This document shows positions 1,854-24,978 of a DNA stretch of 27,213 bases, piece by piece; position 1 is the first letter of the stretch, and each line of letters opens with the position of its first letter. Where the stretch lies: positions 1 through 27,213 of the forward strand of contig CAWGVG010000016.1 in assembly GCA_963825865.1 (NCBI GenBank), given 5' to 3'. The stretch is from an uncultured Nitrososphaeraceae archaeon (GTDB taxonomy: Archaea; Thermoproteota; Nitrososphaeria; Nitrososphaerales; Nitrososphaeraceae). Both the position numbers and the translations under genes were made by a program. Below the pieces are notes generated by a model. That model searched no databases, was not told the DNA's origin, and saw nothing but the letters and a program-made list of their open reading frames with translations.

Positions 1854-3431
1854 ATGCAACTGGACCTAATGAAAAATGCATTAACAAATGTAGCTTTAGT
1901 TTTAATAATAATATCAATTTTGTCTGGCACGTCACTAGTATCAGCTCCAGCTGTTTCTAGTAATTTTTCAACAGCCACACCTATCAAACACCTTGTTATT
2001 ATATTTCAAGAAAATGTTTCGTTCGATCACTATTTTGCTACTTATCCTAATGCTACAAATCCATCTGGCGAACCCCCTTTTCATGCATCTCCAAATACAC
2101 CATCAGTTAATGGCTTAACCGGGGCACTATTGACTAATAATACAAACGTCAAACACTCCAGCCATTTCGTTTCGACCGCTCACAAAATGCAACTTGCGAT
2201 ATGAATCACGGTTACACAGCAGGAGCAGAATGCAACTAATGGTGGTCTTTTGGACAAGATTCGTAAATTAATACATCTCCAAATAAAGCATTGTTAGATA
2301 ATTCGCCAATAGGACTAAGTTAGTCAATGGGTTATTATGATGGCAACACTGTGACCGCATTATGGAATTATGCTCAGCATTTTGCAATGAGCGACAACTT
2401 TTTCAGCACTACATTTGGTCCATCCACTCCAGGACATCTTAACCTTATTTCAGGCCAAACCCATGGGCCAATGCCAGCCAATATCAAGGGAGTTGTTAAT
2501 GGCACGGTAATTGCTAATCCGGACCCTGCTGTACGATAATTGCTCAGATCCTGCTAGACTCTTGATAAATATGTCAGGAGCGAACATAGGAGACCTTTTG
2601 AACTCCAAAGGTGTTACATGGGGTTGGTTCGCAGATGGATTTAGACTCCCAAATAAAACATCCTCATCGTCATCATCAGATATTAAGGTAAGTTGTGATA
2701 GCCGACCAGAACATTTGGGTAGTGACGGAAAAGTGTCGAAAGACTATTATCCAGATGAGAACCATTTCAATACTACAAGTCAACAGCCAATCCTCTGCAT
2801 CTGTCTCCTACCTCAAATTCAACTATCGGTCATAATAGCGATCAAGCCAATCATCAATATGATTTATTGATTTTTGGACTGCCGCTGACTCTGGTAATTT
2901 ACCGTCTGTCAGTTTCATCAAGGCTGCCAACTATCAACAGGGACATCCAGAACTATCAGATCCATTGAAAGAACAAACCTTTTTGGTAAACACACTGAAT
3001 CATTTGCAAGAACACCGCAATGGAATAGTCCTGCAGTCATAATAACGTATGATGATTCAGATGGATGGTATGATCATGTCATGCCTCCTATAGTTAGTCA
3101 ATCTAATGACCCTAAGTACGATAGACTATTAGGTAAGGACGGACTTTGTGGCCGGGCTCCCGCAGGCGCTTATCAAGATCGTTGTGGCTATGGGCCCCGT
3201 CTTCCTTTCTTGATAATATCTCCATATGCAAAGGTAAACTATGTAGATCATTCAGTTACTGACCAGACATCGATAATACGTTTTATTGAAGATAATTGGA
3301 ATCTAGGACGTATAGGAAATCAGTCCTTTGATGTTAAAGCTGGATCAATTCTAAACATGTTTAATTCTACCACAAACCATCATGCAGCAGCAAAGTTATT
3401 CCTTGACAATTCGACAGGGTTAGAAAAATGA
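1854..3431 (+). CDS. secreted phosphoesterase / phospholipase C (AcpA-like), split by several frameshifts
   Basis: Signal peptide; TPIKHLVIIFQENVSFDHYF, MGYYDG..LWNYAQHFAMSDNFF..TFGPSTPGHLNLISGQT, YDDSDGWYDHV and GYGPRLPFLIISPYAK motifs spread over 4-5 ORF pieces. Confidence 0.85.
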
Positions 3432-4595: not shown

Positions 4596-6033
4596 CTACA
4601 ACAACTTTTTTACCAACTGTGATGCTGCAATATTAACTGGCTCCCACACAGGAGAAGCTGGTGGGACATAGCATGCATCATAATTTGCTAAATCTCTGAT
4701 ATCTGCTTTGAGCAAGAGAGCTAATGCAATTAAATCAATCCTTTCCTTTACTGCTTCCCCTCCAACAATCTGCGAGCCCAATACTCTTCCACTCCTTCTA
4801 TCAGCAACAATCTTTATCCATATCGGCTTACTACCTGGGTAGTAACCGGCTCTTGTTATACTTTCTATTTCTTCCTCAATAGGATCAAAACCATACTTTA
4901 AAGCTTCTTCTCTAGTTAATCCTGTTTTGCCAATAAATAAGTCAAATACTTTGGTTATAGCGCTGCCTGCAATTCCTATAAATTTTGCATTTCCACCAGC
5001 GAGCGTTCTCACCTGCAACTCGTCCTTGCTTATTTGCTGTTGTTCCTAAAGGTAGATATGTATCCTTGTTTGTAATGTAGCTTCTAGCAGTAGCACAATC
5101 GCCTGCTGCAAATATATCTGGTATATTGGTTCTCATATGATCGTCTACCTTAATAGCATTGGCATATCCTAGCTCTATACCAGCATCTCTAGCTATTTCA
5201 GAATTAGGTCTTACACCAGTTCCAAGAACTACGAAATCAGCATCAATCTGACGTTTAGTAGCAATAGTATTAGTATTGGTGGTAGTGGTGGTAGTAGTCT
5301 TTACACCCTTGACCTGTCTCTCTATACCACTACCAAGAATTTCTTCAACTCGCTCACCTAGTATAACTTTCACTCCATTGGCTTCTAACTCTCTTTGTAC
5401 AATCTTGGCCATATTTGGGTCAAGAATGAGAGGAAGAATATGGTCACTCATCTCTACTACCGTTACGTCCATTACTGTTCTTGTGGTGTATCGTTTCTTA
5501 AAAGCCTCTGCCATCTCAAGACCAATAAGGCCTGCACCCGCAATTAAACAGGAACGAGCATTTTTTGTAGAATCGTTAATTCTAACTCCATCTCCGTAAT
5601 TTCTTATCAAAAATACGCCTTCGAACTGATTAACACCTTTGATATTGGGAACTAATGCTCTTGCACCCGTTGCTATCACCAAAGAGTCATATTCAAAAAT
5701 CGTTTCTCTGCCAGTTTGCAGATCTGTTGCATATACTTCTTTTTTTATTCTATCTATTTTGTGTGCACGTGTGTTTACGATTACATCTATATGATATTCA
5801 TTTTTGAAAATATCTGGAGGTCTTTCTATTAGTTCTTCAAAATTATTTATGATACCTTCTATGACATAAGGCATTCCACACGCACCATAAGAAACCACAC
5901 TTTCATCTTGAATTATCTTTACATCAGCATCAGGATCAATCCTTTTAGCTTTTGATGCAGCACTAGAACCTGCAGCAACACCACCAATAATCAGTATTCT
6001 CTTATTATTATTCTTCTTCGTCGTCGTCTGCAT
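4596..6033 (-). CDS. cdr: CoA-disulfide reductase / NADH oxidase family flavoprotein (one frameshift near 5000)
   Basis: IIGGVAAG FAD motif, SYGACG redox Cys, GAGLIGLE NAD motif, FAAGDC, PLGTTANKQG, C-terminal dimerisation domain with YVPP. Confidence 0.85.
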
Positions 6034-6243
6034 CGCAGTTTAGATGATTTCTTATTATATAAGTAATATTTATCAGGTATGCTTTCAGGATATAAATTTT
6101 AATTAGAGCTTCTTTTCAAGAGGATGGGCTAAAGTATATTCAGTAGTATATTTGCTGTTGAATGAAAGTGGCAAAATAAAAAAGTAGTTTTAAGAAGTTA
6201 AGATATTTAAGATGCTACCCAGCAATAGCAAGTTGAGACATAT

Positions 6244-6900
6244 ATGAGTTCGTCGGAAGATCGTGACATAGAGCCATTTGATTGGTTCAATAGATTCTTT
6301 GGCGGTGGTAGAAGAAGTGGCGGAAGAGGAGGAGGATTTTTTGGTTTTCCTGATATTTTCAGGGGATTTGATGATATGAGAAAAGAAATGGAAAGACAAT
6401 TTGAACAACAGTTTAAGGATATAGAGAGTAAAGCACCAAAAGACCTCGTAAAAGAATATGAAACATCTACTGGGTGTAAGGTAAGAGAATATGGGCCATT
6501 TGTTTATGGTTATTCTATGACAATAGGTCCTGATGGTAGACCAAAAGTAAGAGAATTTGGCAATGTTAAATCACCATTTAGTAGCAAAGGCTTTTTCACT
6601 AGGCCACTTGTATCATCTGAACGGGAACCTTTAGCAGACGTAACAACTACAGATAAGGAGGTAAAAGTGGTAGTAGAAATGCCAGGTGTTAGCAAAGAGA
6701 ATATCAAGGTAAACGTCTATGATAATTCATTAGAAGTAACAACTACTGGCACAGATAGAAAATATCATGAAGTTATTGAAATACCTCCTGAAACAGATAT
6801 TGAAACAGTCACGTCAACCTATAAAAATGGTATACTTGAAATAGCATTCAAGAAAAAAGAACAGACAAAACCAAAGGGAAAGCAGATAAAGATAGAATAA
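6244..6900 (+). CDS. hsp20: archaeal small heat-shock protein Hsp20
   Basis: GPFVYGYSMTIGPDGRPKVREFGNV, EPLADV, EMPGVSKENI, YKNGILEI, terminal I-K-I motif. Confidence 0.95.
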   Translation: MSSSEDRDIEPFDWFNRFFGGGRRSGGRGGGFFGFPDIFRGFDDMRKEMERQFEQQFKDIESKAPKDLVKEYETSTGCKVREYGPFVYGYSMTIGPDGRPKVREFGNVKSPFSSKGFFTRPLVSSEREPLADVTTTDKEVKVVVEMPGVSKENIKVNVYDNSLEVTTTGTDRKYHEVIEIPPETDIETVTSTYKNGILEIAFKKKEQTKPKGKQIKIE

Positions 6901-6955
6901 AGTCATTTTCTTTCTCATTAAGATTTACAGTTTTTGAGTTTATATTCAGTATAAT

Positions 6956-8923: not shown

Positions 8924-9973
8924 AGATGTATTGCGTAATTACTAAAGGAAATCTCTTTATGATGGTTCGTTATAGTCCTGTTCTGTTAGAGTAACGTCCT
9001 ATTAGTTCGCATCATTATTCTGAAATTTACCAATCCTGAAACAATGTCAGAAGCATGATCATATCTTCCAAGCTTGTTTCTAAATTTAGTACCCATTATT
9101 CCAAACTTTTTAATTCTGCTTACAGTATGCTCGACTATTATCCTTAATTTGGAATGCTTTCTGTTATGTCTCTTTTCCTCATCTGAGAGTTCACTTTTCC
9201 TTTTTTTTCTAAATGGCAGTACAGGCTTTACAGTGGGAAAGTCATTATGAACGCCCAAGTAACCAAGGTCAAACACATTTTCAACTTGAACTGGAGTTGT
9301 AGGATGTTTATTTTTGAAAACTTCATAATCATGTATTCTTCCCCAATCATGACCTGTCTTGTGTAGTATAGTACCCTCATTGTTTACCATATACTGTGTC
9401 TTGATAGTGTGTTTCTTCTTTTTGCCAGAATAGTAGCTTTTTCTCTTTCTCTTGTTCTTTGGTCTTGGTATCTCCTGTTCGGAACAGTCTATGAAAGCCT
9501 TGAAACCTGGAAAGTAATCTTCAACTTCATCTATAGTCCTAAGCCTTCTTGTACGTTTATACAACTTCTTTGGCAATGGGATACACAGTTTGATAAGTGG
9601 TTCAAGCATAGATATATCTCTGCAAACATTGCTCTGATTAAGATCAAATAGAAATTCTGAAAGTGTGTATGTAATGTACAGTCTGTAATAGACTAAAAGC
9701 ATCAAGAATCTTTCTTTGGCTTTCAGTTTGAATGGTCTACCAGCACCAACATCTCTTTCTCTTTTCCTATTGGAAAGACGCTTTCTTTCATGTTCATCAT
9801 ATTTTGATTCTATTTCTTTGGCAATAATATCAAATTCTGATACAACCAGTCCAGTAAACGATTTGAATAACAACGGTCTTCTTGATAATCGAGCGTAAGA
9901 CATCAACGGAGTATCAAATATGTGCAGATCAATGGAGAATAAAGCTCTAAGCTTTCAATTACGCAAGAGGTCT
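8924..9973 (-). mobile_element. IS5-family insertion sequence (ISL2-like), 1050 bp
   Basis: Imperfect TIRs AGATGTATTGCGTAATT / AGACCTCTTGCGTAATT (13/17); 3-bp TSD ATT at 8921-8923 and 9974-9976. Confidence 0.9.
8986..9906 (-). CDS. IS5-family DDE transposase (HTH + DDE endonuclease)
   Basis: FKSFTGL, GAGRPFKL, IDCSEQ.IPRP, YYSGKKKKHTIK, HD, DLGYLG, RIIVEH catalytic motifs; intact. Confidence 0.95.
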   Translation of the reverse strand: MMSYARLSRRPLLFKSFTGLVVSEFDIIAKEIESKYDEHERKRLSNRKRERDVGAGRPFKLKAKERFLMLLVYYRLYITYTLSEFLFDLNQSNVCRDISMLEPLIKLCIPLPKKLYKRTRRLRTIDEVEDYFPGFKAFIDCSEQEIPRPKNKRKRKSYYSGKKKKHTIKTQYMVNNEGTILHKTGHDWGRIHDYEVFKNKHPTTPVQVENVFDLGYLGVHNDFPTVKPVLPFRKKRKSELSDEEKRHNRKHSKLRIIVEHTVSRIKKFGIMGTKFRNKLGRYDHASDIVSGLVNFRIMMRTNRTLL

Positions 9974-10453
9974 ATTGCTTATTGTATTCTGCGCTATGTC
10001 TATTGCCAGGGTCACTATCAAAGCCTGTATGTTTTGAGAAGTGAACATGTGCATCTACATACCCCTGATCATAACCGTTATCTCCTTCAGTACCTTCCAA
10101 TCCTGCGCAAGCCGAATTCGTTGGCTCTTCTCTAAATCCTAGTGCTTTTCCAGTCTTGAGTTCTTTCGCTTCCACTTGGATACAGGCAAAAGGAATGCTG
10201 CAACATACTACCAATATATGTAGCAGTACAAATAGTTTCATATCGGACTGTAAAAAGAATACTTACAAATATAATTCATGTTCTATTAGTACTATTATGG
10301 AAAGCTCGTTTTGCGAAATCTGAAAAGCAGCTAAATCGAATTGACGTTCCAAAAGAATTGGAAAAGTTGTTTTGTATAGCTAATAGCGATAGAAACATCA
10401 TTAGGTTATCAATATATTACATTTATTTTTAAACTTGTTTTTTGCTAATTTCT

Positions 10454-10493
10454 TTATCATTTGATTTTTTGTAAGGACCAAAAACATGTACAA
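10454..10493. repeat. dispersed intergenic repeat R1, copy A
   Basis: TTATCATTTGATTT-n-TAAGGA-n7/8-ATGTACAA, also at 14150 and 17174. Confidence 0.75.
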
Positions 10494-10593
10494 AACAGTA
10501 AAAAGAGATAGATATATGTATATCCATAGGATCTGCTATATAGCACATCCAATATTAGAAACTAACCGAGTGAACGGCTCTGTCGATTTGAAT

Positions 10594-11157
10594 TTAACGT
10601 TCCATGGTCCTAGAAGACATCATTTGCATTCTTCTTCCTGATATTGCAAGGACAATTATCTCTATCCCTATTATTAAAAGTGCTATTCCTAAGATGAGGG
10701 ACACAAGAACTGCGCCATACAACGGAGACGCCATTATCAATATGGACAATGCAATAGCTATAACTCCTGCACCGATGCCAAACCCTCTTGCCCAGCCTGG
10801 ACTTTCTTTGTTTCCTACTCCATATACGACGTGAGCAATACCATTAAACAATAGAGCGATTGCCAATAAAGTTATTACGAACACAGTTGTGCCTATAGGA
10901 AATGCCAAAGCTATTAAGGCCAAGATAATAGCTAGGACCCCAAGTCCCACACTACCCCAGCGTGATTTATTCGCAACAAATATTCCACTTAGAATTTTCT
11001 CGACTCCAACAAATAGCAATATTATCGCAATTATGATTATAATCGACACAACTGTTATTCCTGGATGTATTAAAACTAGTATTGATAATATGATGACTAT
11101 CGCACCCAGGCCAACCTGCGCACCACGCATCCATCTAGGAGATTTTGATTCACTCAA
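10594..11157 (-). CDS. HdeD/DUF308 family membrane protein
   Basis: Six TM segments arranged as three repeats of G....I..LI.P..T....I..A..LLF.G. Confidence 0.85.
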   Translation of the reverse strand: MSESKSPRWMRGAQVGLGAIVIILSILVLIHPGITVVSIIIIIAIILLFVGVEKILSGIFVANKSRWGSVGLGVLAIILALIALAFPIGTTVFVITLLAIALLFNGIAHVVYGVGNKESPGWARGFGIGAGVIAIALSILIMASPLYGAVLVSLILGIALLIIGIEIIVLAISGRRMQMMSSRTMER

Positions 11158-12905: not shown

Positions 12906-13092
12906 CACAAAATATGGCAAAGGCTTCCTTCAACAATAAATCATGACTTAAGTGATGATATAATAATAGTATCTCATGTTTTCTACAATAATATCTATGA
13001 GTTTCTGATTGATAATATGTCTAATGTGTCCTGTCGGCGATAGCGAAAATGGGTTATTGCAGGAGGACGATCAAAGAAAAAGAAAGCGTTTC

Positions 13093-13110
13093 ATGCGCTA
13101 TATAGCGCAT
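13093..13110. repeat. 18-bp perfect palindrome ATGCGCTATATAGCGCAT (R2)
   Basis: Identical copy at 14033-14050; degenerate copies at 10531-10548 and 16668-16681. Confidence 0.9.
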
Positions 13111-13424
13111 AGTATTATGGATATACTTTCATCTGCTATATACAATATTTCTGCAGCTGCATTTCCTTCACGTCTTATTGTCTTCGCTTGTTTTATTCCC
13201 GAATTTTCAGCCTGAGATTTATAATCATCAAGTAGCTGTACAGTTACAGCTGTTCCACCTTCCTCTGCTATTCGCTTAGCAATTTCTCCAAATTCTTGCT
13301 TTATCTTACTTGGTATTCTTTCAAATGCGTCAAATATGTTTACAATAATTAGAGCAGCATCACATTGTTTGGCCAAAAAGGTATCAAATGTATATCTTGC
13401 TCTTATACCAGCTATTGGATACAT
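13098..13424 (-). pseudogene. universal stress protein (UspA) internal fragment
   Basis: LAKQCDAALIIVNI and REGNAAAEILYIADE motifs; lacks the GSRG C-terminus and is truncated at R2. Confidence 0.75.
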
Positions 13425-13604
13425 TCAATCAACTTTTCTATATGCGAGCCTTGTGTTATATCTCCATGATCTCTTATAGATCTTTTTTACCCGTGAGTCA
13501 CATTTCGATGCTTTATTCTTGTCAAGTTATCAAGAATAGCCATAATCCAAATGTCTCAATAAAAATATATTTCAATTTAAATTGAAAATCAAGGTTAATC
13601 CAAT

Positions 13605-13775
13605 ATGATATTAGGACGAAGCGGAGGTCCTATTGGGAATGCTTACATAAGTCCAAAAAATCCTAAATTTATGCAAATGGCCAGCATAATATTCCAATAT
13701 ATTATCACTTTCCTGGTGGGAATCTATATTTCCATTATACTCTATGAGGCGGTTAGAAAAACAACATCAACTTAA
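13605..13775 (+). CDS. possible small membrane protein (56 aa)
   Basis: One TM segment IIFQYIITFLVGIYISIILY. Confidence 0.3.
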   Translation: MILGRSGGPIGNAYISPKNPKFMQMASIIFQYIITFLVGIYISIILYEAVRKTTST

Positions 13776-14032
13776 AAAATCTTTTTTATGGCTTCTTTGG
13801 CTATATTAATGCAGTGTTAGTAGTTAAAAGTCCGCTTAGAAGTTACAATGTCATCATGTAAGAATTGTCGAAAGTGGATTTGAGGATTAAATCTATTTGA
13901 TGGATGGATAAATATAATTATTAAAACATGCGTTGGCGTATTTGAAAATAGAGATTATCATTGATTTTTTTGCACTGCTACTCTTATCATCTATGAAATA
14001 ACACAGCTGTCGGTTTCTTTATCGGTTTTTTG

Positions 14033-14073
14033 ATGCGCTATATAGCGCATAATGACAGAAGATTATGTTAAAT
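14033..14073. other. R2 palindrome overlapping a dif-like site
   Basis: ATAGCGCATAA-tgacagaaga-TTATGTTAAAT versus E. coli dif GGTGCGCATAA-tgtata-TTATGTTAAAT; spacer is 10 bp instead of 6. Confidence 0.5.
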
Positions 14074-14149
14074 ACAATACATACGGAAGCATATTCAGAT
14101 GCATTAGATGAGACTAGTAATAGTATTTTTAAACTTATATTTTCTTAAC

Positions 14150-14188
14150 TTATCATTTGATTTCTCATAAGGAGTATTTTATGTACAA
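14150..14188. repeat. dispersed intergenic repeat R1, copy B
   Basis: TTATCATTTGATTTCTCATAAGGAGTATTTTATGTACAA. Confidence 0.75.
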
Positions 14189-14218
14189 AAAGACAACGGT
14201 ATCAATGCAGCATATTTG

Positions 14219-15419
14219 TTAAAATTTATAATATTCTTTTCCTGCCAGAGAAGTACCACCTATATCTTTTAAGTACCTCATTTTGATTAATTTCTTGAGT
14301 TTGCTGGCGGAATAACCATAAAGATCTAATCCTCCTACCCTTGATACGGCAAAGTCTGATCCAATAGAAATAGCAAAAGTGGAGCCAGGTTTATCAGGCT
14401 TATATTCCTGTAACTTTTTTTTCGTCTCTCCTCCTTTCATTATAGCATAGATATTTTGTGCCAACTCTCCCATGTTGTTCAGCAAAGTATGCATTTGTTG
14501 GTAAGGGTTGACTTTTATCGTCAAGTATTAAAGCAGAATCTCCAAGCACAAAAACACTATCCTCTTGTCCTTCCGCCTGCAGATATTTATTGACAATAAC
14601 TCTTCCTTTTTCACCGGTTTTCAATCCAATATTTTTTAAGAGAGGAGATGCCGTGACACCGCCCGTCCAAATAAACATAGTATGTGTAATCTCCCTTCCA
14701 TCCTTGAGATGTATTGAATGCCGTTTGACTTGCAAAACATAGCATTCAGGACATAAAAATAGTTTAACTCCCAAACTCCCGAGGTATGTTTTTACCCAGT
14801 TTACAGTAGAGTCTGGAAAACCCGATAATAGACTTGGGGACACTAATGTGACGTTAACATGACTCACCTTAAAATTGCATTGTCGTTGTTGTATGTTTAG
14901 CACAGATGCTATCTCGCCAGCAAGCTCTACACCTGTAGTTCCTCCACCTGCTATTACTATATTGCCATTTAGATTTACGTCTGATATCCTTCGGGCTATT
15001 TTTTCTGCATCTTGTATAGTATTGAATAGGAATGCGTACTCCCTTAATCCTGCGATATTGGGTAAAAAAGGCTGGCTACCTAAAGATATGACTAGAAAAT
15101 CGTATCTTAATTCAGAAGATTTTCCTTCTCCTTCAGTAATGAAGACTGTCTTGCTATTTAGATCAATATTGCTTATTGTTGCTTGGATAAAGTCTATTTT
15201 CTTATTACGGACAATATCTTTGTAGTCAATGATAGAAAATCCACGTTTTGATATTATTTCTGGTAAACTTGGAAGTAAAGTATGATATCCTTTTTTATCT
15301 ATTAGTAGAATTTTTGAATCGGAGTCTTTAAGCAGGTGATGCTCCAACACAAGAGCAGCTTGAATTCCTGCATAACCTCCACCAGCAACTAAAACTTGTT
15401 TTGGACGATCTTTATACAA
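14219..15419 (-). CDS. type II NADH dehydrogenase-like FAD-dependent oxidoreductase (frameshift near 14460)
   Basis: VAGGGYAG, YDFLVISLGS, GGGTTGVELAGE, IWTGGV, FVLGDSA; C-terminus continues in the 14219-14524 frame. Confidence 0.85.
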
Positions 15420-15653: not shown

Positions 15654-16608
15654 ATGAAAGTAGGTATTGTTTTACCACAAACAGGACAGCAGGCTACAAA
15701 AGACAATGTAGTTGAATTAGCACAGAAATCCGAAAAAGAAGGTTTTGATTCTTTATGGGTTTTCGACAGACTTCTTTGGCCTTTGGAGCCACAGACACCA
15801 TATAGAGGAATGGCAGATGGAAGTTTACCAGATGATATGCAAAATGTATTTGATCCCTTAGGTACACTTACTTTTGTAGCTGCGAATACAGAAAAAATTG
15901 CATTAGGAACATGTGTTATAGATATGTTATTTCACAATCCTGTAATACTCGCAAGGAGATTTGCAACACTTGATGTTTTATCAGAAGGAAGAGTTATCTG
16001 TGGCCTTGGTATTGGTTGGTCAAAAGACGAGTAACAAGGCTTCCAACGTCCCATTTGAACACAGCGGTAAAAGGGCAAATGAATTTGTCCAGGCACTTAA
16101 AAAGATATGGGCAGATGATATCGTTGAGTTCAAAGGAGAATTTTATAATATCCCACCTTCTAAAATAGGACCTAAGCCTATTCAGAAACCATCTATTCCA
16201 ATCTACCTTGGAGGTTATAACCCAAAGACATTTTCAAGAATTGTAAAGTATGATGCTAATGGATGGTTGGCGTCTATGTCTGGTGCTGTATCTTTGGGAA
16301 GTCTGGAGAATAACATAAAGATATTAAAAGATAAGGCAGCTAACGCAAACAAAAATCCAAATGATTTTAGAATTGTTGTGTTATTATATCCAGGAAGATA
16401 TTCAAATTCCAATAAAGAAAAAGTAAAAGAAAGTAATAGCAGGATTCCCTTCACCGGCACCATCGATGAAATGGGTAGTGATCTACAGAAAATCAAAGAG
16501 ATGGGAGTAGTAGATCATGTAATTTTTAGCTATAATTTCTCATCTGAAGGCAGAGATATAGAGAAGATGATTCAGACAACAAAACAGCTTTCAAAATTTG
16601 CAACATAA
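15654..16608 (+). CDS. LLM-class probable F420-dependent oxidoreductase (frameshift near 16033)
   Basis: GFDSLWVFDRLLWP, LGTCVID, LARRFATLDVLSEGR, GIGWSKDE, PKPIQKP.IPIYLGG. Confidence 0.9.
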
Positions 16609-16773
16609 GAGAAGAAAAATTTTAGATCAACCATATCGAATTACGATTGAAAATAGTTTGAAAAATGATGCGTTATATAGCTATTATCTAGACCCTTGTA
16701 GAATAGACCCAAGTCACGCATTCAAATATTAGAAACTGACGGAGTGAACTGTTAGTTTGATGTGTGTTATAGG

Positions 16774-16801
16774 TCGGGTTTATAGATTTCAATAAACCCG
16801 A
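16774..16801. repeat. perfect inverted repeat TCGGGTTTAT-N8-ATAAACCCGA (R3)
   Basis: 10-bp arms; 24/25-identical inverted copy at 22994-23018. Confidence 0.85.
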
Positions 16802-16930
16802 TAATGATGATAATTCGTCATTGTCGTCATCCTGTATGTGTATCTGCCGTAAGGAGGAAGACAATACATGAACAAGAAAAAAAGTTTAGAGATTTATTTC
16901 ACTGTCAAATGATATGTTACATCGTAAGCG

Positions 16931-17173: not shown

Positions 17174-17212
17174 TTATCATTTGATTTTGATAAGGACGTA
17201 TTCAATGTACAA
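17174..17212. repeat. dispersed intergenic repeat R1, copy C
   Basis: Contains the palindrome CTTATCA-N8-TGATAAG (17173-17194). Confidence 0.75.
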
Positions 17213-17674
17213 GGTATCATGACGATATCAGACAAAATATTTTGATAGCAGACTTTTGATAACAGAAAATGAGATAGATATATTTATATCCAGCCAGAAA
17301 CTTAGAGCCCATCATTTTGTGGAAAATTGTTGATTGTTCTTTAGCATCTTCGTGATCGTCATGTTTTAATGATATAATAAATGTAGAAGTAAGAAATAAC
17401 CTACCTAATGGAGCTCATTTCTTTCATTTCAATCCCACCTGAAAGTCAGCTATATGTCAAACACCATTACGAATAGTATCTATCAGCGTTCTTGTATATT
17501 ACCATAACTACTGCTGACTGTTGGCCATTCATTAGATTTCATAGAAGAAATACAAAAGGTCATTATTAGTATAATTATTTGTATACAAAAGAGGAACTAA
17601 AACCACGGAAGCCTTCCAAAAGCATCTTCTTCCATTTAAAAATGCTTTCAATTAAGCACTTAGGTGGTAGTTGT

Positions 17675-23108: not shown

Positions 23109-24978
23109 TTGAACGAAATGCTTTGGAATATCTTTTGTTCTTCTAGAAAGTCTTTTAAATTGGTAGTATTAGCAGTAGTATTTTTGTCTATTTTATTGAT
23201 GATATTTGGTATTGTATTTGGTTATGCTTTTGCATTTGTGTTGCCTGCTAGTTCATTTCTAAACATGGGACTTCGACTAACCCAACAATTGGAAAACACA
23301 TCAACAATGGCAACAAGACAATTGGGCGTTTCTCAGAATGATATATTTTCTGACCAAAACTCATCTGATAGGCAAGATAATGGTGATGATAGTAGCAGTA
23401 GCAACACAGTATCATTACCGCCTAACTCATCTAACTCAGACCTTGGGACAAAGTTAAAAGACACCAATAACTGGATAACAGTCAATCATGACATCTATGG
23501 TACTAGACACAGTAATCAGACTTTGATTAATAAGGAAAATGTAGCTACACTCCAAGTCAAATGGAGATTAATCAACGATGTCGAAATACAAGATCCACCT
23601 ATAATTATAGGCAACAAAGGTTACGTACAGGATTATGCTGGTACTGTTATAGCATTTGATGCTGATACCGGGGAAGTCCTATGGAAAGTTAAAGCAGGTA
23701 ATGGTCCTACAATGGGATTGACTTTCGATAAGGGAATGGTATTTGCAGCTACAGCATATAATGCTACTGTAGTTGCAATTAATGCTACAGACGGTAGAAT
23801 TATTTGGCAATCGCAAGAATTAGGTGATCCTAAAACAGGCTACAATATTCCTTCTCAACCTATAGTATGGAAAGATTATGTAATAGTAGGTTCAGCTGGC
23901 GGCGGTGATCCGTCAACTGGTATTGGAACAGTAAGAGGAAATATTACTGCTCTGAACAGTACTAATGGTGAAATAATATGGAATCTGCACACTGCTATAG
24001 GAGAATGGGTGAATCCAAGTACAGCTCCTGCTTATAATTCTGGAGCAACAGCTTGGTCTGGTGGTTCACTGGATCCGGAAACAGGAATAATATACATTCC
24101 ATTAGGAAGTCCATCACCAAACTTTAACGCAACCACAAGACAAAGTCCTAATCTATATGCAAATCATATGATAGCTGTTAACATCAGTAACGGCCGAATG
24201 ATATGGGCTACACCATTCATAGCTCATGGAACTGTTCTAAATGTCAGGGTTCCTGACACACATGATTGGGATACGTCATGGGGAAGCACATGTTAGCAAG
24301 GTTACATTTGACAATGGAACACATGCAAAAGTAGTCATAGGTCACGACAAGATGGGAAATGTCATTGCAATGGATGCAGCTACGGGAAAAGAAATATGGT
24401 GGAAAACGTTAGGAAAGCAATACAACACAGATTCAATCCCATTACCAAATGGAAGTGGCATGGTATGGTCTTATGGAGTAGATGCTTATCATGCAGTAGA
24501 TAATAATAGTAACACTCTCTTCATTACTGCTACAAATAGAGGTGTGAATTATTTTACAGATGGAATAGCTGGACATAAAATAGCTCGCTCCACACACAAT
24601 AAAACAAGGACATCTTAACGGAACCATAATTGCAATGGATTTAAGAAACGGAAATATTAAGTGGCAATACCAGACAGAGTTCCCCCAAGGATTTCTCCAA
24701 TAGTTACCAACGACATTGTGTTTGCTGGTTATATTCCTTTTACAGAAAGCGCAAAGACTAAAACAAATCACACGAAAACAACAAGTTCAGGTGTGATTTT
24801 GGCATTGGACAAAGAAACTGGGCAAAAGCTATGGGAATATAATGTTAATGCTGCAATAGCTCAGGTTGGACCATCCATAGGAAATGGAATGCTATTTGTA
24901 CCAACTGATAAAATCCAAGTACAGTCTAAAGACACACCTCGAGGAGAAGGGTCCATAGTTGCATTTGAACTGCCATAG
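23109..24978 (+). CDS. secreted PQQ-binding beta-propeller (PQQ dehydrogenase-like), three frameshifts
   Basis: W..N.D..GTRHS.QT.INKENV.TL..KW, repeated A.DA.TG...W motifs, GSPSPNF, HDWD; shifts near 24290, 24586 and 24684. Confidence 0.85.

Follow-up and report, generated by a model that had tools for sequence, protein, structure and literature searches.

An 18-bp palindrome as the core of lineage-specific mosaic intergenic repeats in an ammonia-oxidising archaeon

The window described here is a stretch of 27,213 nucleotides from an uncultured Nitrososphaeraceae archaeon, analysed at its full length, and forms the whole of one contig (CAWGVG010000016.1, here C16) of the host genome GCA_963825865.1, called G000 below (4.98 Mb, 62 contigs). 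It contains two perfect copies of an 18-bp palindrome, ATGCGCTATATAGCGCAT, which is referred to as PAL. PAL forms the conserved centre of repeats that are dispersed, mosaic in structure, non-coding and restricted to one lineage; the nearest known analogues of these repeats are the repetitive extragenic palindromes (REP) and bacterial interspersed mosaic elements (BIME) of bacteria. With a probability of about one half, PAL is the palindromic core of intergenic mosaic repeats resembling REP/BIME and at the same time a preferred point of breakage and rejoining. An original prediction, made from the letters of the window, had seen in the same copies a recombinase system of the dif, pdif or attC type, but this assignment fails on its defining features. 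In the following, coordinates such as C5:62794 refer to contigs of G000, and names such as L028 denote PAL-bearing contigs, mostly from soil metagenomes (L097 is contig C32 of G000).

A genome-wide count, suggested as a check by the original prediction, gave 11, 17, 25 and 32 copies of PAL in G000 at zero, up to one, up to two and up to three mismatches, the 32 copies being spread over more than 20 contigs. The reversed pattern was found 0 times, compared with 17 copies of PAL, and none of 100 shuffles of the window yielded any match at up to three mismatches. Among perfect palindromes of 16–18 bp in this genome PAL is the commonest (11 copies versus at most two for any other), and the 8-base half arm TAGCGCAT alone occurs at background level (121 found, 107 expected). 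It might be argued that PAL is a chance resemblance or an artefact of assembly or sequencing, as the contigs L023, L028, L041, L058, L075 and L087 start or stop at it, which is expected of any repeat. This explanation has a negligible probability and is ruled out by the shuffles and the reversed control, by the presence of PAL in assemblies from numerous independent projects as well as in the Logan contigs for three DNA runs from three studies, and by the homologous flanks in which it is embedded.

PAL at up to one mismatch was absent from all 40 relatives searched (33 other genera). Its 14-base core was found once each in two of 150 other genomes of the family, compared with 11 times in G000. 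A scan of one genome per prokaryote species returned six single matches in unrelated bacteria, and a scan of viral contigs returned none. From metagenomes, a scan for exact PAL gave 83 stretches, 80 of which were fetched; most have a G+C content of 30–38%, and all but about 11 lie below 40%. G000 itself has 35.5% G+C (81.8% complete, 2.8% contaminated) and encodes an archaeal AmoA (E 5e-115), which identifies the host as an ammonia-oxidising archaeon; genomes of this lineage are unusually large and rich in repeats and split open reading frames (ORFs). Many of the PAL-bearing metagenome contigs match G000 piecewise at 77–99% identity and carry two to five copies each. PAL is real, confined to one lineage and widespread in soils holding that lineage.

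The anatomy of the copies shows a sharply bounded core between exchangeable flanks. Conservation ends at the edges of PAL, with an information content of about zero beyond position +2. At the first two positions of the flanks T is rare (2–6%), with a weak A–C excess only (37 found, 26.6 expected), and positions +5 to +9 are enriched in T (44–55%). Single-stranded PAL folds into a hairpin (7-bp stem, 4-nt loop) with an energy of -7.3 kcal/mol for DNA and between -9.2 and -10.7 kcal/mol for RNA. The 250 flanks of 125 copies (at most two mismatches; from G000 and low-G+C contigs) could be grouped into 89 families, of which 38 have more than one member, and the same family meets different partners on the opposite side of PAL: 11 for family 0, seven for family 2, six for family 1 and five each for families 3 and 4. 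These flank modules are 25–300 bp long, are themselves repeated and are separated from PAL by 3–9 bases that vary in length and sequence within a family. At 92 of 362 sites the module is accompanied by at most 3 nt of PAL, and modules and core are therefore separable.

Neighbouring copies are usually close together: 25 of 35 adjacent pairs are 125–561 bp apart, and the segments between them hold no gene, the longest open frames being 23–73 aa. The ends of these segments form no fixed pairs, so that the segments themselves are mosaics. Few copies lie inside longer duplications, and relatives of PAL with four mismatches, in flanks that are 84–89% identical, form a decay series. In G000, 23 of 25 copies fall outside any ORF of 120 aa or longer, compared with 1574 of 3000 random points (52%). 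The gene-poor stretches around the copies vary between strains and often extend over 1–5 kb devoid of such an ORF, and the neighbouring genes of these 25 copies show no consistent orientation to PAL. Across 107 distinct contexts, PAL lies within an ORF of at least 100 aa in four and outside in 103, and gene 3' ends within 300 nt outnumber gene 5' ends by about 2:1 (32 versus 16). These properties are those of REP/BIME elements: the palindromic unit is intergenic and dispersed, with a copy number at the low end, and it forms mosaics with other short motifs.

DNA appears to have been broken and joined repeatedly at the centre or the edge of the PAL dyad. An exact 9-nt half PAL, ATAGCGCAT, is joined to unrelated DNA at four independent loci (C26:52034, L048/L060, L066 and L068), and shorter remnants of 7 nt and 6 nt were found at two further loci and one further locus, respectively. 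L076 reads flank, PAL, family 5, and L066 has the same flank and PAL followed by 844 bp, a half PAL and family 5. A block of 278–290 bp starting at the edge of PAL is present in L025, L063 and L068 and missing in L039. Four sequencing runs, all as Logan contigs (three of DNA from three studies and one of RNA), were compared with the window, and contigs from the three DNA runs cease to match it at 13092, 13111, 14029 and 14050. The link between PAL and breakpoints, which the original prediction had proposed to look for, was thus found, in contig matches that stop at PAL edges and in the half copies. The joints within Logan contigs link repeat copies and are no evidence of recombination; window positions 13202–13709 are uncovered in runs X1 and X2, and the RNA run covers five of 30 bins. 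In addition, L028 is 96% identical to C26 in the adjoining gene until its PAL-bearing module begins, where G000 is unrelated. A separate synteny break lies at C57:34843, where three strains diverge at a gene end that carries no PAL.

These observations would fit a process in which a trans-acting protein, or a single-strand, hairpin-dependent mechanism, recognises the PAL core, and in which DNA is preferentially broken and rejoined at or beside it. Breakage and rejoining at the core would explain the half copies cut at the centre, the blocks gained or lost from the edge and the hypervariable bases between core and module.

Several points weigh against this interpretation. No clean empty site, in which two flanks adjoin without PAL, was found among the PAL-bearing contigs and G000, and therefore mobility of the core itself is not shown. 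The junction of family 6 with family 5 is constant in nine of nine cases, so the core is not always the breakpoint. Compensated variants, which are still palindromic, make up one of 10 two-mismatch contexts, and selection for pairing is not demonstrated by this number. The metagenome copies were retrieved with exact PAL, which inflates the apparent perfection of the core. Tens of copies are few for a REP family, and a loop-less perfect dyad of 18 bp is shorter than typical REPs. As for enzymes, no cognate enzyme was found in G000, where a completeness of 81.8% makes absence weak evidence, and the PAL copies show no consistent link to a recombinase, a transposase or an IS end. In this incomplete genome, a Y1 HUH transposase is represented by one fragment alone, a Y1_Tnp match over 34 positions (C46:38302-38403) that lies 26 kb away from any PAL. 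The five TnpB loci of G000 have no PAL at up to four mismatches at their ends, and a single five-mismatch match lies about 2.5 kb from the TnpB of C46.

A stronger version of the breakage idea holds that PAL is the recognition and cleavage site, cut at the dyad centre (T9|A10), of an archaeal breaking-and-joining activity of an unrecognised kind that moves modules between copies. The modules so moved would be short regulatory or non-coding pieces, pieces resembling CRISPR (clustered regularly interspaced short palindromic repeats) repeats and occasionally whole genes. This is put forward as a tentative possibility. If true, it would amount to an archaeal equivalent of cassette exchange or of the REP/RAYT system, one whose enzyme is not recognisably a RAYT, an Xer or an IntI.

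It is rather doubtful that PAL is the crossover site of a tyrosine, serine or other site-specific recombinase by which segments are excised, inverted and re-inserted in a cassette-like manner. Such a site is suggested by the re-assortment of flank families around an invariant core, by the clustering of copies and the break of half copies at the centre, and by genes bracketed by two PAL, for example the N6_N4 DNA methylase of L067 and L050. G000 contains 22 Phage_integrase matches and one resolvase at C60:76751-77170, besides one IS110-type transposase and the five TnpB loci, and C32 has an 8-kb segment with an integrase-like gene between 230-bp repeats that carry three-mismatch PAL variants. 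However, most segments between copies are 107–543 bp long, non-coding and mosaic, with ends that form no fixed pairs, and some are shorter than expected for recombining double-stranded circles. In no case was a module seen inverted between two copies, family 6 keeping its place beside family 5, and the bases beside the core vary more than the modules, which a crossover inside the core does not predict. A divergent integrase-like family has about 27 loci in G000, about five of them within 5 kb of PAL, and its full-length homologues on C5 and C62 are not near a copy. An association of this family with PAL was rejected, most of its loci being far from the copies, although fragments of integrase-like ORFs lie within 3 kb of seven of the 32 copies; the 355-aa form has no Pfam match and a weak PHROG integrase match. 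As none of the Phage_integrase matches falls in the window, the original prediction was right in seeing no recombinase there. Finally, conservation limited to 18 bp would leave arms of 6–8 bp only, compared with 11 bp at Xer sites according to the consulted parts of PMC2958812 and PMC5357621.

Relations to transposable elements were likewise not found. IS200/IS605, IS110 and serine recombinase genes of G000 show no link to the PAL copies. A derivation from IS200/IS605 as a palindrome-associated transposable element (PATE) was rejected, as the TnpB loci lack PAL and carry G+C-containing hairpins of other sequence. A miniature inverted-repeat transposable element (MITE) was also rejected: TAGCGCAT is at background, no direct repeats lie beside the copies in the flanks viewed, and there are no fixed end pairs. 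A second lineage-specific palindrome, AGAAGACGTCTTCT, has 41 copies in G000 (C2:20464, C2:41481, C3:4638 and 38 others) and is missing from 20 relatives. It is located within an insertion sequence (IS) present in many near-identical copies, three of which, when aligned, agree at about 98% as far as the IS end, and it is unrelated to PAL. The DDE_Tnp_4 transposase of the window (8986–9906) lacks AGAAGACGTCTTCT.

In the window, the copies of PAL and the pieces around them are arranged as follows (strand in brackets, a dot standing for no strand).
10405–10530 (-): copy of an about 200-bp repeat (ATGGATATAAATATAT...AAGTTTAAAAATAAATG), abutting a degenerate PAL.
10531–10548 (.): degenerate PAL, 15/18; the identical variant occurs at C49:6362.
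10594–11157 (-): DUF308 membrane-protein gene, with its stop 46 bp from the degenerate PAL.
13093–13110 (.): perfect PAL, copy 1; 7-bp stem and 4-nt loop, -7.3 kcal/mol as single-stranded DNA and -9.5 kcal/mol as RNA.
13111–13126 (+): 16-bp stub of the about 200-bp promoter-like repeat ('..ATGGATATA..'), a repeat that follows PAL in 14 flanks.
13127–13395 (-): fragment of a Usp-family gene, truncated at both ends, 80% identical to C21:43284-43533; no Pfam match.
13821–13889 (+): 69-bp remnant of a Rad51/RadA-paralogue gene, from its 3' end; 80% identity with C32:6589-6658.
13966–14032 (+): flank module on the left side of copy 2, with 93% identity to C4:18779-18846.
14033–14050 (.): perfect PAL, copy 2, by sequence match and fold.
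14051–14091 (+): flank module with the 'dif-like' TTATGTTAAAT, found again only at C7:67601-67652 and C26:52033-52082.
14124–14199 (-): partial copy of the about 200-bp repeat.
16550–16667 (+): flank module with 92% identity to C5:62676-62793, the latter continuing into the perfect PAL at C5:62794.
16668–16685 (.): degenerate, truncated PAL, 14/18; homology with the C5:62794 locus stops inside it, at 16681.
17174–17292 (-): copy of the about 200-bp repeat without PAL.

The original prediction had read the letters of this region correctly. The two perfect copies are spaced 940 bp apart, the 10531 copy matches at 15 of 18 positions, and the adjoining motifs are present as it quoted them. The copies it had called intergenic and near gene ends are so, 10531 lying 46 bp from the DUF308 stop and 16668 lying 60 bp from an ORF end at 16608. 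The degenerate copy it saw at 16668 exists as well, but it is in fact truncated, as only its first 14 bases are homologous to the C5:62794 copy. It had further placed the 13093 copy exactly where a usp gene is cut off. The ORF at 13098–13424(-), for which no Pfam match was found, does have its stop codon within PAL and represents part of a Usp-family paralogue of C21:43170-43653, but the homology to Usp ends at about 13127, 17 bp away from PAL.

Between the two perfect copies lie, in order, the 16-bp repeat stub, the Usp fragment, a 56-aa ORF, the 69-bp RadA-paralogue relic and the C4-like flank module. This 940-bp segment is a patchwork of gene fragments and not a gene cassette, and the window from 10 to 17.5 kb is likewise a patchwork of short pieces, each common to a different contig. 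The interpretation given by the original prediction is supported in part: PAL lies at breaks of similarity and its flanks re-assort, but the 940-bp segment is a patchwork and 25 of the 35 inter-copy segments measure at most 561 bp without a gene. The module at 13966–14032 is related to the largest flank family (..GATAAAGAAAC..ACAGCTG..), and both window copies are ordinary members of the PAL family. The about 200-bp repeat runs from ATGGATATAAATATAT to a strong box resembling an archaeal promoter, AAGTTTAAAAATAAATG, and has further copies at C6:81765-81950 and about 12 other places; no conserved ORF follows its promoter-like end in 15 of 15 copies. A recurring hairpin module (TCGGGTTTAT..ATAAACCCGA) was seen at 16775–16808 and in flank family 30 (L015, L082), and lies about 25 nt from PAL in other contigs.

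The likeness to dif concerns copy 2. The 14033 copy leads into GCGCATAA (14045–14052), ten bases and TTATGTTAAAT (14063–14073), arms which we take to equal those of E. coli dif, and agtaTTATGGATAT directly follows the 13093 copy. The resulting arrangement of 8 + 10 + 11 is symmetric over 5 bp only, CATAA/TTATG, and is not 11-6-11. The exact 11-mer TTATGTTAAAT occurs 16 times in G000 (21.5 expected) and within 60 nt of one of the 32 PAL copies; its one-mismatch or half-site relatives are restricted to C7:67631, with one mismatch in the arm, and C26:52034, where the module copy (C26:52033-52082) adjoins a 9-nt half PAL only. The original prediction had itself named a lack of this arm at other copies as evidence to the contrary, and such a lack was found. 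The 'dif-like' arm is a flank module that happens to adjoin copy 2, and a strong letter-by-letter likeness to E. coli dif can come from one chance flank.

In the consulted parts of PMC2958812 and PMC5357621, dif is described as a site of 28 bp with 11-6-11 architecture, present as a single copy and conserved among relatives, archaea included. The central region between the partly symmetric arms may measure 6–8 bp, and rarely 10–11 bp. Central regions of up to 10–11 bp exist in difSL and possibly difH, as described in part of PMC5357621, which speaks for a recombinase site and means that the 10-bp spacer alone is not decisive. Decisive against dif are the copy number, the lack of symmetry and of arm conservation, and the absence from relatives. 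A dif/Xer site was accordingly rejected for a sequence of 18 bp in 11–32 copies with no conservation beyond +2 and none in 40 relatives. Modules of the pdif type were rejected with 25 of 35 segments at or below 561 bp, open frames of at most 73 aa and TTATGTTAAAT at one of 32 copies. Integron attC sites and cassettes were rejected on the invariant 18-bp core, the unrelated flanks, the non-coding segments and the lack of an adjacent integrase gene.

Another explanation takes PAL as a putative site of a dimeric DNA-binding protein, such as a transcription factor, nucleoid protein or mobile-element regulator, spread passively on promoter or untranslated-region modules and perhaps connected to the stress response. 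A perfect dyad of 18 bp has the usual size for a dimeric regulator, its TATATA centre would allow a bound protein to compete with TBP, and the A/T box ATGGATATAAATATAT stands 3–9 bp from PAL in 14 flanks. Hsp20 loci lie within 5 kb of PAL in eight of 14 cases, and Usp and DUF308 paralogues are also near. Such a function is nevertheless unlikely, as the distance to genes is not fixed: the nearest ORF of at least 120 aa is 25 to more than 4000 bp away, the pairings of gene ends around PAL are 3'/3' in eight cases, 5'/5' in six and mixed in eight, and Hsp20 genes lie 0.2–4.5 kb away on either side. The promoter-like end of the about 200-bp repeat, as said, precedes no conserved ORF, PAL is missing in all related genera, and its copies decay like neutral sequence. 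The features expected of a transcription-factor operator, a fixed position at the promoters of a regulon and conservation in relatives, were not found: distances and orientations are scattered and relatives lack PAL.

PAL may also act as RNA, forming a 3' hairpin that terminates or stabilises mRNAs, along with short non-coding module transcripts of which some contain CRISPR-repeat-like sequence. The stability of the RNA hairpin, the 2:1 excess of gene 3' ends within 300 nt, the enrichment of T at +5 to +9, the order of PAL followed by T5-7 in families 4 and 5 and the enrichment of CRISPR-repeat-like flanks (eight of 89 families) are consistent with this. One metatranscriptome contig spans the degenerate 10531 copy, though contigs cannot prove transcription. 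On the other hand, the T-run is missing in most flanks and often precedes the hairpin, no Rfam family matched, and one z-score against shuffles was just -1.27. A role as RNA also leaves the re-assortment of flanks and the centre-broken half copies unexplained, and is unlikely. Both the operator and the RNA hairpin fit fewer facts than a REP/BIME-like core at which DNA is broken and rejoined.

A CRISPR array, in which unique spacers of some 30–40 bp separate identical repeats, was rejected for the PAL clusters, as the copies are spaced 125–561 bp apart or more and what lies between them belongs to conserved repeat families. The genuine CRISPR repeat of G000 is a 30-mer ending in ATTGAAAG, which occurs in arrays at C15:55960-56316, C15:57643-57736 and C42:5025-5122 and at C44:35325 and C46:55932, solitary repeats included; no PAL is near the arrays on C15 and C42. 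The eight CRISPR-repeat-like flank families align to this 30-mer with scores that reach or exceed the 99th percentile for 2000 random 60-mers. At some loci, PAL stands between two CRISPR-like pieces at a spacer-like distance, and these 'spacers' are conserved. A loose CRISPR-like regular expression gave no discrimination, with 135 matches versus 149 in the reversed genome. One CRISPR-repeat-like piece, C4:18872-18901, was noted 8 nt from PAL.

Among the neighbouring genes, Hsp20 bears on the stress-gene cassettes proposed by the original prediction. The eight of 14 loci within 5 kb of PAL exceed the random mean of 0.77, and none of 5000 random sets reached eight, but the loci are paralogous and thus not independent. 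An Hsp20 gene is duplicated at 96–98% identity together with about 40–70 bp upstream and 0–50 bp downstream (window 6173–6945, C5:61056-61828, C43:6722-7420 and C56:30925-31623). The boundaries of these duplicates differ between copies and carry no PAL, and Hsp20 'cassettes' were rejected for this reason. The enrichment near PAL was upheld and the cassette was not; Hsp20 and PAL both reside in the same flexible islands, and their association is not that of a cassette with its site. Paralogues of Usp and DUF308 were seen near copies of PAL, those of DUF308 at 0.8–2.2 kb from a PAL on C4 and C26.

RadA-paralogue genes (Pfam Rad51, E 6.5e-49) end 81–123 nt before PAL in five metagenome contigs, L031:381-1220, L076:528-1166, L065:3-482, L034:204-965 and L053:1380-1763, and copy 2 of the window, with its RadA-paralogue relic, is therefore in a recurrent context. 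In L031 and L076, a protein of 226–313 aa that belongs to no known family precedes the RadA paralogue. The methylase mentioned above is a gene of 576–595 aa with an N6_N4 DNA methylase domain (L067:8504-10231 and L050, 9782–11781), with PAL 66 bp upstream and 151 bp downstream and no full homologue in G000. The segment on C32 (L097; 3979–12211) lies between 230-bp direct repeats that are 95.7% identical, each with a three-mismatch PAL variant, and encodes the integrase-like protein of 355 aa and an integrase-like fragment, along with a paralogue of the Rad51 family, a winged-helix protein at C32:8411-8872 and ORFans. The segment may represent a mobile element that has integrated.

Split genes, seen as overlapping or adjacent ORFs, are present in the window at 1854–3431, 4596–6033, 14219–15419, 15654–16608 and 23109–24978; those checked were Pyr_redox_2 at 14400–15419 and Bac_luciferase at 15961–16608. 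Contigs from other soils carry indels of one to two bases at 14415, 14461 and 16038, and the split window genes are either pseudogenes or assembly indels.

A REP/BIME-like palindromic mosaic repeat in ammonia-oxidising archaea was not encountered in the literature searched, including the consulted part of a review on thaumarchaeal mobile elements (PMC6563490). The sharply defined 18-bp core at the joints of modules offers a handle for finding the protein that would recognise it. PAL is also useful for tracking genome plasticity among soil strains, and awareness of it helps to avoid mis-assembly and mis-annotation of such regions.

Compared with known systems, archaeal dif/XerA sites share with PAL an inverted repeat and an A/T-rich centre (parts of PMC2958812 and PMC5357621), but dif is a single-copy site of 28 bp kept in relatives, whereas PAL is multi-copy, 18 bp long and missing in related genera. 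CRISPR arrays resemble it in a recurring short palindromic repeat, and some PAL flanks resemble the CRISPR repeat of G000; the 'spacers' of PAL, however, are conserved families of 107–543 bp, and the genuine arrays use another repeat of 30 nt without PAL. The attC sites of integrons, 55–140 bp long, are imperfect and vary in sequence apart from conserved R''/R' boxes; each follows a single promoterless ORF, and intI/attI lie alongside. PAL shares with them the array-like alternation of a palindromic site and variable segments, and differs in being invariant, in having segments that are mostly non-coding repeats and in lacking an adjacent intI-type gene. The pdif modules of Acinetobacter plasmids, in which XerC/D sites flank gene modules, have a short dyad site in many copies and the same modules in different contexts in common with PAL. 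In contrast to them, PAL has no 11-6-11 structure, its segments are mostly non-coding and of 100–560 bp, its copies are chromosomal on more than 20 contigs and the arm stands at one of 32. MITEs and the IS200/IS605-derived PATEs are short non-autonomous hairpin repeats, like PAL in an IS-rich genome (41 copies of one IS), but PAL has no visible target-site duplication, no parent IS ends and no fixed end pair.

The closest comparison is that with REP/BIME elements, which in enterobacteria and pseudomonads work with RAYT (TnpA-REP) enzymes. They differ from PAL in being imperfect palindromes of 20–40 bp in hundreds of copies, compared with a perfect dyad of 18 bp in tens of copies in an archaeal host. 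No RAYT-like gene flanked by PAL was found in G000, where the Y1_Tnp fragment is the only candidate, and the modules of PAL include CRISPR-like pieces. What both have in common is a short intergenic palindrome with a preference for gene 3' ends, restricted to a lineage, arranged in mosaic clusters and present in copies that range from perfect to decayed.

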